Positions 28,386 to 32,342 are shown, numbered from the stretch's first letter. The stretch: 47,469 nt of DNA from a virus (IMGVR_UViG_2877274432_000010); one strand, 5' to 3'. Made by a program: numbers and translations. Notes: a model not told the origin generated them from the sequence alone.

Positions 28386-28788
28386 GTTGGAGTCATTACC
28401 CACCGGAACTGATTTGATGAACTATCAACGCTCTTAAATTCCCGGCCTTTTTAATGTTACTGTTAGTAATCTCCCAGCCTTTCAATGTTTCCCGACATCG
28501 TTTTCCTCGAAACATGAACCAGATGCGAATGTATTTACCTCGAATCTCGACACCTGTTGGTAATTTAGACATATCATGAGTCTTTGATAAACTGATTTAT
28601 CTTCGGATAGTTGTACCAGATAATCCCTCGCTTACTGTCTGGCTTCCCTAAAGGAGATACTCGTTTGAAGTGGAAGCCTTCCACCCAACAGTTCTGGCGG
28701 TATGCTTCAATTTGTCTGGCACCCAGACCAGTGCGAAGCATCAGGCTGAACCGCCCCGGGTTTCCTGGAGAGTGTTTTATCTGTGAAC

Positions 28789-29261
28789 TCAGGCTGCCAG
28801 ATCATCGTTTCCGATGGAAGCATAATAAGCTTTTTCTGCTTCTGCCGGAGGGATGTGGCCCAGCCTTTCCAGCAATCGTCGATTGTTATACCAGTCCACC
28901 CACGTTAGTGTGGCCAGTTCCACTTCTGCACGGTTTTTCCAGCTCTTACGGTGTATTACCTCCGCTTTGTAAAGACCATTGATGCTCTCCGCCATCGCGT
29001 TGTCATACGAGTCGCCTGTACTTCCTGTTGATGCCAGTAATCCGGCTTCCTTAAGCCGCTGTGTGTAGGCCAGCGATACATACTGAGAACCTTTATCACT
29101 GTGATGGACCGTGCCGGACGGTCGACGGGCCCATAACGCCTGCTCCAGTGCATCCAGCACGAATGTCGTTTCCATGGACGATGAGACCCGCCACCCCACG
29201 ATGTATCCGGCAAACACATCAATGATGAACGCCACATAGACGAAGCCCCGCCATGTGCTGA
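28789..29261 (-). pseudogene. IS629 OrfB, C-terminal exon-like part
   Basis: ...[22 protein letters not shown]... to IGNDDLAA; interrupted upstream by the intron. Confidence 0.8.
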
Positions 29262-31531
29262 GTAGAGTAAGAGGCAGGGCGTAGTCGGACTATTTCCCTG
29301 CCTCTCCTCCCCGAACCGGACGTGCACCTTTCAGCGCATCCGGCTCTCCATTTAAATGCTGGCGAACGCCATTGCCACTTCTGTAAAGCGCGATGTATAC
29401 GTGTTTCTGGTCTCCGTCCTCAGATAGGGATTACCTTCGGGTAGCCGCCAGCGGAACAGCTTCTTGCCTTGCCCCACCAACCGGTACAGTATTTCGCCGC
29501 TGAGCTTGCCGTGATTGGTTTTACCAAATAAAACCCACGTTTTGCTCTGACCCGGTTTCGGTGATTTACACCACCACCTCATCAGGGAAGCGATACCTGT
29601 ACGGTATTTGCGGGCCAGCCAGTGAGCCAGCTTCCAGAACACGACACGGTCGATATAACTGAAGACTTTGGCCTTAAAATCAACGAACTGATAGAACATG
29701 GCCCAGCCTTTCAGTTTTCGGTTGAGTTGTTCAGCCATATCGACTTTGCTTTCACTGTAGTTGCCTGATAACAGTGCTGTCAGCGATGCGGCGAAGTTTC
29801 TGGCTTTCTCCTGCGGGATCGTTGAGACCACTCGCATCTCGCCATAACGACTGCGTTTGCGAATGATCCTGTGCCCCAGAAAGATAAAGCCGTCATTAAC
29901 ATGGGTGATTTTAGTCTTATCCATGTTCAGCCTGAGTTTCAGACTGCCTTCGAGCACACCCCGACACTCCTCCCTGATGGCTTCCGCCTGTGCTTTGGTG
30001 CCTTTGACGATGAGGACAAAATCATCGGCATAGCGGCAGTACGCCACCGCGGGTTTCCACTGCCAGTTTTCTCTGACCGCCGTACTTCGGCCCCGTTGGA
30101 TACTGTTATTCCAGTACCACCGATCTTTTCTGGCTTTCCCGCTCAGGTAGCGCTCATGCAGGTATTGATCGAACTCATTCAGCATGATGTTCGATAATAG
30201 CGGCGATATAACACCGCCCTGTGGCACACCTTCACTGGCCGCCCGAAAGAGACCGACATCGATATGTCCCGCCTTGATGGTTTTCCACAGCAGAGTCATG
30301 AAACGTGCGTCACTGATCCTGCGGCGTACAGCCTTCATCAGCAGTCGATGATGTACGGTGTCGAAGTAACTGGACAGGTCGCCTTCAATCACCCAGCGTC
30401 CCCGGGTTTCACCACAGTCTGTGAGCTGTAATTTCACCGTGCGGATCGCGTGGTGGACACTGCGCTCAGGCCGGAAGCCATATGAGAGCGTATGAAAATC
30501 ACTCTCCCATATCGGCTCCATCGCCATCAGCATGGCCCGCTGAACAATACGATCCCGCAACGCGGGGATACCCAGTGGTCGCAGTTTGCCGTTGCTTTTA
30601 GGGATGTAAACCCGTCTGGCGGGCAAGGGCTGGTAGTGGCCTGAGAGTAATTCATCCCTGAGGATTTGCAGCTCAACAGCCAGTCTGGCCTGTAGCATTG
30701 TTTTGTTCACGCCATCAACGCCGGGGGTATGGGCCCCCTTTGATGAAAGCGTGATCCGCGCCGCTTCAGCCAGCCATTCTGGTTGTGTTATCAGACGCAG
30801 CAGCCGTTGAATCCGTAGGGACGGATCGGTGGCTGCCCATGTGGCAAGCTTGCGTTGCATTTCGCTGATTATCAAAGGTCTTCACCTCGTTAGGTCAGTT
30901 AATTCACGTCGCAAACACATTCAAACTGCTTCCCTTCGCCATGTAATGGGCTTTCCCCATCGCGGACTACTACGGAAGCTCCGCCAGCCAGCGCGTCATC
31001 GGAGCCATGCCCCCTTAACATCCGTCGCTGACCTTCCCCGGTTTACCTGCCTGGACTCAGGCATACTGAGGAGGCTGCCCGTCGCACTCTTTATCCTTGC
31101 TTGCCGCAAGTTGGCAGAAGTCAGCAACGCAAGTGTGATAGACGCTGCTGCCCCGGTGTTTCGCATACATGTCAAAACACCTTCGACCGGCAGTGCTTAC
31201 GTATCACTGCCAGTTCCTCCTGCACGGCCTGTCAGATCACGTAGGCCGTGGTGACGTTTTCAACCCACAGAGGCGGATTAACGGGTTCATGTTCTTCAGC
31301 CTTTCAGTACTTAACCTTGAGGATCATCTCGGCTTAGTGATCTCGCCTCAATCCCCGTTGTCAGCGGGTTACATCACCCTGCGGGCATGCCGCAGGTCAC
31401 TGCCGCTCAGGTTCTCCACCGTCACACCCGGTGGGATTGTTGGGTTTCTCATCGTGAGTTACCGGTTCAATATTCCAGACAGACTCGCGGTTCATTTAAG
31501 CATCCATGCCCGCCCTGAACTCCGGGCACAC
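29262..31531 (-). mobile_element. Group II intron, about 2.27 kb
   Basis: 5' end GTGTG (GUGYG consensus) immediately after the orfB codons for FTY; domain V-like GAGCCGGATGCGCTGAAAGGTGCACGTCCGGTTC near the 3' end; ends ...CTCTAC; encodes a reverse transcriptase; boundaries placed by eye. Confidence 0.75.
29352..30875 (-). CDS. Group II intron reverse transcriptase/maturase
   Basis: 507-aa ORF with RT motifs including YADD (AYCRYADDFVLIV) and a maturase-like C-terminus. Confidence 0.85.
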   Translation of the reverse strand: MIISEMQRKLATWAATDPSLRIQRLLRLITQPEWLAEAARITLSSKGAHTPGVDGVNKTMLQARLAVELQILRDELLSGHYQPLPARRVYIPKSNGKLRPLGIPALRDRIVQRAMLMAMEPIWESDFHTLSYGFRPERSVHHAIRTVKLQLTDCGETRGRWVIEGDLSSYFDTVHHRLLMKAVRRRISDARFMTLLWKTIKAGHIDVGLFRAASEGVPQGGVISPLLSNIMLNEFDQYLHERYLSGKARKDRWYWNNSIQRGRSTAVRENWQWKPAVAYCRYADDFVLIVKGTKAQAEAIREECRGVLEGSLKLRLNMDKTKITHVNDGFIFLGHRIIRKRSRYGEMRVVSTIPQEKARNFAASLTALLSGNYSESKVDMAEQLNRKLKGWAMFYQFVDFKAKVFSYIDRVVFWKLAHWLARKYRTGIASLMRWWCKSPKPGQSKTWVLFGKTNHGKLSGEILYRLVGQGKKLFRWRLPEGNPYLRTETRNTYTSRFTEVAMAFASI

Positions 31532-31532
31532 C

Positions 31533-31945
31533 GTAAGTAAAATCAGCCACCCACAGCTGGTCAGGTCGTTCTGCCACGAACTGACGGTTTACGCGGTCGC
31601 CTGCGGCAACGGCTTTCCGGCTGATGGTCGTACGGACCTTTTTACCCCGGAGAACACCGGCAAGTCCCATAACCGCCATGAGACGTGCCACAGTGCATCT
31701 GGCCACTCTGATACCTTCCCGTAACAACTGACGCCAGACTTTACACCGTATACCTTGTGATTTTCATCGTATACGCGCTGTATCTCTTTCTTCAGCCAGT
31801 CATCGCGCTGCGCACGGGCACTGCGTTTATCCGGATGATGTCGCTGTTGCTGACAGTGGTAATACGTTGACGGGGCAATATGCAGTTCGCTGCATAGCGG
31901 TCCGACCCCGTACTGCTCACGCAGCTTATCCAGCAGTGGCATCAT
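31533..31945 (-). pseudogene. IS629 OrfB, N-terminal part (two overlapping frame pieces)
   Basis: [21 protein letters not shown]... and ...RQFVAERPDQLWVADFTY match IS629 OrfB; stops at the intron 5' junction. Confidence 0.75.
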
Positions 31946-32268
31946 TTTTTCCAGAGGCGGTCGAACTCCGCCTTCGCAAAATAAGCGGAAGCCTGGCGAA
32001 GGATATCGTTACTGCGGCGCAGTTCACGATTTTCACGCTCCAGCTCTTTCAGACGCTGACGTTCAGCGGTGGTGAGCCCTCCATCACCGCCCCCGGTATC
32101 CCGCTCATGCTGGCGAACCCAGACACGCAGAGTCTCCGGCGTACAGCCAATCTTTGGGGCAATGGAACAAATTGTCGCCCATTGTGAGTCATATTCGCCC
32201 TGACTTTCCAGAACCATACGGACTGCCCGTTGACGGACTTCGGGGGAAAAACGAGTATTTTTAGTCAT
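31942..32268 (-). CDS. IS629 OrfA
   Basis: 108-aa [45 protein letters not shown]... Confidence 0.85.
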
Positions 32269-32342
32269 CCTGTTTACCTCTTTCTCAGGAAGTTTAGTCT
32301 CCAGGATTCCCGGGGCGGTTCATTCCCAAAATGCACTTGGTT

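Follow-up and report, generated by a model that had tools for sequence, protein, structure and literature searches.

The group II intron E.c.I4 in a frameshifted IS629 of a Shigella flexneri prophage remnant: a precise, strain-polymorphic insertion into an already defective element

Bacterial group II introns whose proteins have no endonuclease domain can be at home in insertion sequences (ISs), as is the case for RmInt1 of Sinorhizobium meliloti, the studied model for endonuclease-independent retrohoming, and for E.c.I4 of Escherichia coli, a copy of which is described here from a stretch of 47,469 nucleotides recorded as viral (IMGVR_UViG_2877274432_000010; the whole stretch is called the window, and window positions are counted from its first letter). 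In E. coli IAI39, E.c.I4 is the sole full-length group II intron and is present in 15 copies; its targets are IS629, IS911, ISEc16, and ISEc31 (Leclercq and Cordaux, PMC3522654). Together with the 99% identical S.f.I1, it is placed in open reading frame (ORF) class A and lacks a DNA-binding/endonuclease (D/En) region (Toro and Martinez-Abarca, PMC3552965), and the class is reported to consist of three nearly identical members (PMC3552965) and to be very scarce (PMC7306698). The intron in the window shares with E.c.I4/S.f.I1 the length class, the protein (WP_001189111.1), the insertion point in IS629 orfB, and the absence of an endonuclease domain; only the host copy differs, as it is a 1306-bp frameshifted IS629 without a target-site duplication, located in a prophage remnant. 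RmInt1, by contrast, belongs to class D (whose features are described in PMC3552965) and to IIB3, has another RNA structure and another target IS, and is used below as a mechanistic analogy for priming only. A third point of comparison is Ll.LtrB of Lactococcus lactis (class ML, IIA), which shares with the present intron a delta position directly 5' of exon-binding site 1 (EBS1) that pairs with the first base of exon 2 (+1), as well as two adjacent exon-binding hairpins in domain Id. However, the Ll.LtrB protein, LtrA, carries DNA-binding and endonuclease domains that the E.c.I4 protein is without, and the 5' hairpin of Ll.LtrB is EBS2, which pairs upstream of intron-binding site 1 (IBS1), whereas in E.c.I4 both loops fit the IBS1 register.

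By sequence comparison, the element in the window is E.c.I4, a catalogued intron, in the kind of place where it usually resides; it is already known and ordinary for Escherichia and Shigella. Almost certainly, this copy retrohomed into the W-x-x-D-x-T-Y target that the intron commonly uses in IS3-family elements, here an IS629 that was already dead and that neighbours xis in the remains of a lambdoid prophage in a Shigella flexneri chromosome. The intron occupies 29262–31531 on the minus strand (2270 nt, GUGUG...CUCUAC), i.e. the same strand as orfB, and it splits orfB one base past the codons for ...WVADFTY. Exon 1 ends with ...CAG CTG TGG GTG GCT GAT TTT ACT TAC G at 31532, exon 2 starts with TC AGC ACA TGG at 29261, and the predicted ligated-exon junction joins ...TTTACTTACG to TCAGCACATGG. 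A reading made earlier from the sequence alone had proposed a group II intron within IS629 orfB, an element of about 2.27 kb starting with GTGTG and finishing with CTCTAC, whose flanking exons rejoin in frame. All of this is borne out: GTGTG is at 31531–31527, the last base is 29262, translation of the joined exons runs in one frame across the junction, and comparison with known introns returned E.c.I4 as the match, an identity that the sequence-only reading had missed. Both ends agree with the group II consensus (GUGYG at the 5' end and AY at the 3' end).

Several lines of evidence support the ribozyme core. Rfam RF00029 (domain V/VI) matches 29262–29348 on the minus strand with 64.9 bits (E = 1.3e-10 over the entire window; gathering threshold, 40), and the match finishes precisely at the final base of the intron. 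Domain V (GAGCCGGAUGCGCUGAAAGGUGCACGUCCGGUUC, 29313–29346, minus strand) is a 34-nt hairpin with an AGC triad, a 2-nt bulge, and a GAAA loop, recovered by RF00029, by folding, and by the family alignment; domain VI (29264–29312, minus strand) carries a bulged branch-point A (A2264, window 29268) located 7 nt from the 3' splice site. The domain V-like hairpin that the sequence-only reading had placed near the 3' end is thus real, and the folding it had proposed as a check recovers a recognisable domain V/VI, with a z-score of -5.8 for the single-sequence fold of the last 90 nt. Among 19 distinct relatives, compensatory changes are seen in 10 of 32 pairs of domains V and VI, and the bulged A is kept in every one. 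When the intron was scanned permissively against Rfam, domains V and VI alone were returned, with no match to a group II D1–D4 model. A further hairpin at intron positions 176–232 (window 31300–31356) has an 11-nt loop of the form GA-N-N-U/C-C-N-N-UAA, which is GAGAUCACUAA in E.c.I4 and GAACUCGUUAA and GAGUUCGCUAA in relatives; the variation of this hairpin across the family is patterned, and it may contribute to a tertiary pairing.

The intron-encoded reverse transcriptase/maturase is read from 29352–30860 on the minus strand and counts 502 aa from an ATG at 30860, as supported by Pfam, by TIGR04416, and by identity with RefSeq. The 507 aa originally given for it hold when counting starts from a TTG at 30875, although not from the ATG; the YADD motif is present as claimed (codons at 30021–30032). 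The 502-aa protein is identical to the RefSeq ltrA product WP_001189111.1, and the ORF is intact. Pfam recognises RVT_1 (1.5e-34) and GIIM (1.3e-10), and the NCBIfam equivalog model TIGR04416 for group II reverse transcriptase/maturases scores 341 bits against a cutoff of 300. Past GIIM (residues 427–507), neither HNH nor any other Pfam family matched, so the protein has no endonuclease domain. The best relative of solved structure is LtrA (PDB 5g2x, E = 2e-52), with alignment to the reverse transcriptase region only. The ORF spans intron positions 672–2180 and stops 5 nt ahead of domain V, and therefore lies in domain IV.

Copies of this intron are abundant, and a chance resemblance is out of the question, since E. 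coli genomes hold copies that match it at 100% along the full length. With 29262–31541 as query, for which a 100% match covers the intron plus 10 nt of IS629, complete E. coli genomes gave a match in 2669 of 5426, near-full-length in 1874 and with 99.9–100% identity; these copies are annotated ltrA and lie between two IS3 transposase fragments. The intron is also present on 1519 plasmid records from Escherichia, Klebsiella, Salmonella, Enterobacter, Yersinia, Citrobacter, and Shigella. Compared with the copy in an IS629 of E. coli IAI39, which has the same insertion point in orfB, only 3 of 2270 positions differ. For annotation, the appropriate label is therefore E.c.I4 inside a defective IS629, with the two IS3 fragments around ltrA treated as one gene; the case is a textbook example of one mobile element, here a retroelement, sheltering within another.

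The history of the insertion could be read from empty alleles. The orthologous locus was located in NCBI chromosomes through an exact match to the neighbouring 365-aa AAA_24 protein; the chromosomes that carry it are S. flexneri according to a published table (PMC9455713), and the whole locus was found in no complete E. coli genome and in no phage record. Five of these S. flexneri chromosomes, G1663 (CP007037.1), 1205 (CP012140.1), 2013C-3749 (CP034931.1), AR-0425 (CP044152.1), and CP102218.1, are intron-free; their flanks are 99.9–100% identical to the window, and their IS equals the computed ligated exons exactly, including a 4-bp deletion described below. Two others, AR-0424 (CP044155.1, 99.99% identical to the window) and CP102221.1, carry the intron. 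As the empty alleles equal the ligated exons, the insertion was precise and is polymorphic among strains, which is the direct signature of a precise and recent gain of the intron by one IS copy. Moreover, since the intron-free alleles all carry the deletion, the IS was defective before the intron arrived. An intron-free IS629 in a related prophage of E. coli O121 was also considered as an empty allele and was rejected: it is inserted about 1 kb away (window 33351–33355) and is not orthologous.

The deletion leaves the host element without an intact orfB. Once the intron is removed, the IS629 copy is 1306 bp rather than 1310 bp, and alignment with the intact E. coli CE10 copy (1310 bp, annotated with an intact programmed-frameshift product) places the missing 4 bp (GGTGTGCGTAAAG to GGTGTAAAG) at IS position 578/579, about window 31744/31745 and some 210 nt upstream of the intron. 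The context in the window is ACGGTGTAAAGTCTGG (31734–31749, minus strand), as opposed to ACGGTGTGCGTAAAGTCTGG in intact IS629, and is supported by alignment with CE10 and with an E. coli O121 allele that is likewise 1306 bp long. Because the deletion shifts the frame, the native orfB frame, running downward from 31945, terminates at a stop codon at 31589–31591, 57 nt ahead of the intron; the 5' part of orfB accordingly extends over 31589–31945 on the minus strand (ORF list and translation of the joined exons), and the DDE part lies in a frame different from that of the native orfB start. The copy thus has no intact orfB for a DDE transposase and is a pseudogene regardless of the intron. In E. 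coli O121, this 1306-bp allele is entered in RefSeq as a frameshifted pseudogene, and with the deletion seen in at least 8 independent assemblies, an assembly error is unlikely. It follows that the intron is carried along by a pseudogene and that its splicing is without consequence for transposition. The 1306-bp allele is found without an intron in chromosomes and plasmids of E. coli O121, and it also hosts a second intron-bearing copy in S. flexneri (L005). Its presence at other loci shows that the frameshifted variant has multiplied, presumably by mobilisation in trans.

These observations would fit the following route, in which splicing, lariat formation, and the mode of priming are taken over from established knowledge of group II introns. 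The intron would be transcribed within the IS629 transcript, being on the same strand, and its ribozyme (domains I–VI, with domain V as catalytic centre and the branch A in domain VI) would, together with the maturase, splice it out as a lariat. The lariat ribonucleoprotein would then locate intron-free sites through pairing of EBS1 (CGUAAG) with IBS1 (CUUACG) and of delta (A330) with U(+1), and would reverse-splice into the DNA. As the intron protein is without an endonuclease, priming of the cDNA copy would fall to DNA ends supplied by the host, probably at replication forks, by analogy with RmInt1.

In the pairing that would direct this homing, IBS1 comprises the last six bases of exon 1 (CUUACG, positions -6 to -1, window 31532–31537, minus strand) and is the perfect complement of the EBS1 loop, exon 2 beginning with U(+1) at 29261. 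EBS1 (CGUAAG, intron 331–336, window 31196–31201) lies inside the 9-nt loop (AUACGUAAG) of domain I hairpin A (31189–31211, minus strand), whose stem shows compensatory changes and whose loop also holds delta. Sequence complementarity gives 6 of 6 Watson-Crick pairs between EBS1 and IBS1, and delta (A330, window 31202), directly 5' of EBS1, can pair with U(+1). In L045, the only relative with A at +1, the delta position is U. Domain I hairpin B (intron 351–377, window 31155–31181, minus strand) presents a second EBS1-like motif in its loop (A-UGUAUG, intron 362–368).

Candidates for a second exon-binding site fared less well. Against UGAUUUU (-14 to -8) in IS629, GAGAUCA (intron 188–194) can pair at all seven positions, two of the pairs being G-U, but it was not accepted as EBS2, as it matches neither the other targets of E.c.I4 nor distant relatives; UAAGUA (219–224) was not accepted either, since it overlaps the IBS1 register and sits in a conserved structural segment. 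A canonical arrangement, with hairpin A as EBS2 for positions -6 to -10 and hairpin B as EBS1, was rejected as a general model because the GUA core of both loops fits only the UAY tyrosine codon in typical exons; it works in IS629 solely since UUAC occurs twice there. A column-by-column scan for covariation between exon and intron gave little information for the most part, owing to protein-level conservation of the exon.

Some points do weigh against a copy of E.c.I4 that arrived by retrohoming. The name was assigned by annotation and by cross-reference to published strain tables; transcription and splicing of this copy are predicted from its sequence; no convincing EBS2-IBS2 pair was recovered, the GAGAUCA candidate failing in other E.c.I4 targets and in distant relatives; and transfer by homologous recombination from another intron-bearing IS629 copy keeps, in formal terms, a place among the explanations. 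Three alternatives to this reading can be considered. The most likely of them, which we nevertheless hold to be improbable, is that the copy is an inert relic, unable to splice or to move in its present host. Seven candidate sites in other IS3-family copies of the window are unoccupied, including two of the IS911 type that E.c.I4 uses elsewhere, and the literature records that only about 2% of sites are occupied in S. flexneri 301 and that the ORF is disrupted in strain 2457T (PMC3522654). However, the ORF of the present copy is intact and encodes a protein identical to the consensus WP_001189111.1, its RNA is identical to that of the most widespread copies, and its presence varies among closely related S. 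flexneri strains, indicating a recent gain.

The second alternative, which appears improbable, is that the intron arrived by homologous recombination or gene conversion with an intron-bearing IS629 in the same genome. Shigella genomes hold many IS629 copies, another S. flexneri copy (L005) carries an identical intron, and metagenome contigs with chimeric exon pairs (for example, a 5' exon of the IS629 type and a 3' exon of the IS911 type) show that intron copies do recombine with one another. The exons of L005, however, differ from those of the window at -79 and +13 relative to the junction, whereas the exons of the present copy equal those of the empty allele; with L005, the one possible donor compared, a conversion tract would need to end on both sides within the stretch from -79 to +13. 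The identity of the exons with the empty allele rather than with L005 favours, on sequence grounds, retrohoming over gene conversion. The suggestion of the sequence-only reading that the intron had retrohomed into the IS is therefore retained as the best explanation, given empty alleles with the exact ligated-exon sequence. A third alternative, that the intron interrupts a functional IS629 whose orfAB transposase mRNA is restored by splicing, with transposition dependent on splicing, is barely credible here and, for this copy, already refuted by its alignment to intact IS629: the exons are in frame at the junction, and restoration of this kind would apply to intact copies such as that of IAI39 (1310 bp, with an AAC duplication), but the upstream deletion stops orfB before the intron and RefSeq annotates the same allele as frameshifted, so splicing, although originally expected to restore the transposase mRNA, is unable to do so from this copy.

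Under retrohoming, the strain polymorphism implies that the intron still moves in S. flexneri, even into dead IS copies, and through such insertions scattered IS copies come to share a further 2.3 kb of perfect homology. The breadth of sites used by E.c.I4 was surveyed through its 5' end, found in 17 viral and at least 120 metagenome contigs, and 147 further occurrences were examined for site type. About 55 of these are of the IS629 type (GATTTTACTTACG followed by TCAGCACA), about 40 of the IS911 type (GATGTGACCTATA followed by TCTGGACG), and about 10 of a type reading GATATTACGTATA followed by TCTGGGCA; several other site types were seen as well. The intron thus homes to a fixed position in IS3-family transposase genes, be it in IS629-type, IS911-type, or other D-x-T-Y sites. 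Among the contigs are chimeras (loci L092–L228) in which a 5' exon of the IS629 type is followed by a 3' exon of the IS911 type (TCTGGACG; 5 cases) or the two types are exchanged, which indicates homologous recombination between intron copies in different IS families, creating chimeric ISs.

The seven unoccupied candidate sites of the window have their -1 base at 941 (minus strand), at 11986, 19620, 34500, and 46476 (plus), and at 16749 and 17395 (plus). Five of them are WVADLTY sites (GACCTGACGTATG followed by TTGCC) in copies of a 1264-bp IS3-family element; the two at 16749 and 17395 are of the IS911 type, WCGDVTY (GATGTGACCTATA followed by TCTGG), a type that is occupied elsewhere. The WVADLTY site was occupied in none of the 147 E.c.I4 occurrences, so something beyond IBS1 limits targeting.

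The intron protein also belongs to a wider lineage. A scan with one genome per species returned 311 relatives with 66–100% identity, hosted by Proteobacteria, Nitrospirota, Planctomycetota, relatives of Bacteroidota, and others. Of 62 loci whose 5' junction could be read, 55 have the intron one base past codons for W-x-x-D-x-[T/S/C]-[Y/F/W]; the W-x-x-D-x-T-Y codons are those around the first catalytic aspartate in DDE transposases of the rve type (IS3-like, and at least one IS6/IS240-like). When the exons of six diverse loci were joined, each gave a transposase, five rve-type and one IS240/IS6-type, with the junction at the start of the catalytic core. A literature search on homing to IS3 or DDE elements and on name variants of E.c.I4 yielded nothing further. 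Proteins 93–100% identical to that of E.c.I4 occur in assemblies labelled Chryseobacterium, Microbacterium, a Halomonas metagenome-assembled genome (MAG), a Bacillota MAG, and Aeromonas (loci L004–L083), which reflects either very recent horizontal transfer or enterobacterial contamination.

Across the family, the loops of hairpins A and B (hereafter loops A and B) are both 9 nt long, have the form A-Y-A-N-G-U-A-N-G, and fit the same IBS1 register (-1 to -6, with delta opposite +1), and compensatory changes are found in all 18 predicted pairs of the two hairpins and their enclosing stem. Among 32 distinct introns, loop A is a perfect match to its own exon (6 of 6 pairs) in seven and loop B in another count of seven, and the delta position pairs with +1 in 14 of 14 perfect-match introns. 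When exons were permuted among introns, the own-exon complementarity of loop A was reached by 1.65% of 2000 permutations and that of loop B by none, and the 14 perfect loop-exon matches compare with 7.9 ± 2.0 expected; these tests let the register slide, accept G-U pairs, and take no account of how the sequences are related. For E.c.I4 itself, loop A pairs with the IS629 site in 6 of 6 positions, loop B surpasses loop A at the IS911-type site (5 of 6 against 4 of 6) and at a CGUAUA site (6 of 6 against 4 of 6), and loop B is the better of the two at sites with A at -1. It is enticing to speculate that the lineage is much larger than the literature states and is a specialist for one target, which it would read through two alternative EBS1/delta loops suited to two codon variants of the same motif. 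Because of the manner in which the permutation tests were made, this is put forward as a tentative hypothesis that we hold to be possible, though doubtful. If true, two EBS1/delta loops would explain the multi-IS host range of E.c.I4, and, if confirmed, they would represent a novel means by which a group II intron can broaden the set of targets open to it. The research value of the locus is limited to this clade-wide homing site in a DDE catalytic motif and to the two EBS1-like loops.

The IS629 copy that hosts the intron, a member of the IS3 family, spans 28747–32322 on the minus strand and comprises 1306 bp of IS sequence plus the 2270-nt intron; the coordinates first proposed for it hold exactly, with terminal inverted repeats at both ends. 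These repeats (TGAACCGCCCCGGG...) are imperfect, agreeing between the two ends at 23 of 25 positions; the left one (TGAACCGCCCCGGGAATCCTGGAGA) lies at 32298–32322 and the right one at 28747–28771, neither with a strand assigned. The joined exons are 99.2–99.5% identical to E. coli IS629 copies (99.2% to the intact CE10 copy), and RefSeq labels the same arrangement 'IS3-like element IS629 family transposase'. From the left end, the copy carries orfA (31942–32268, minus strand, 108 aa; Pfam HTH_Tnp_1, 6e-13), an ALIL pseudoknot (31871–31987, minus strand; Rfam RF01497, 120.2 bits against a gathering threshold of 50), which is the stimulator of -1 programmed frameshifting in the IS3 family, and, downstream of the intron, exon 2 with the 3' part of orfB (28789–29261, minus strand), recognised by its translation and by Pfam rve, rve_3, and rve_2 as the DDE/rve core. 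A 3-bp target-site duplication is absent, as the flanks read GGC (28744–28746) and TTC (32323–32325); the intron-bearing IS629 of IAI39 has the 3-bp duplication AAC on both sides. The neighbours of the copy are a DUF1233/xis-like gene (28574–28741) on one side and the AAA_24 ATPase gene (32343–33440) on the other. The unduplicated flanks and the identity of the neighbouring genes suggest an IS-mediated deletion or a recombination event in the early region of the prophage.

Finally, the remainder of the window bears further marks of IS activity. Four IS1 copies are present (8631–9402, 18407–19175, 27633–28403, and 44237–45005), the third of which splits a phage integrase gene into a C-terminal part (26993–27646) and an N-terminal arm-binding part (28396–28572). 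A direct repeat of 100% identity (16591–16890 and 17237–17536, 646 bp apart), each unit with an IS911-type WCGDVTY segment, resembles a partial duplication in tandem within an IS911-like element. Altogether, the window gives the impression of at least two lambdoid prophage remnants riddled with ISs. Rfam further identifies two copies of a module of isrK and C4-antisense RNA in opposite orientation (10940–11141, plus strand, and 39270–39458, minus strand), and the window also contains a sok antitoxin RNA (7819–7993), CssrB (43880–44062), and a cluster of tRNA genes for Met, Arg, Thr, and Gly at 13209–13519.

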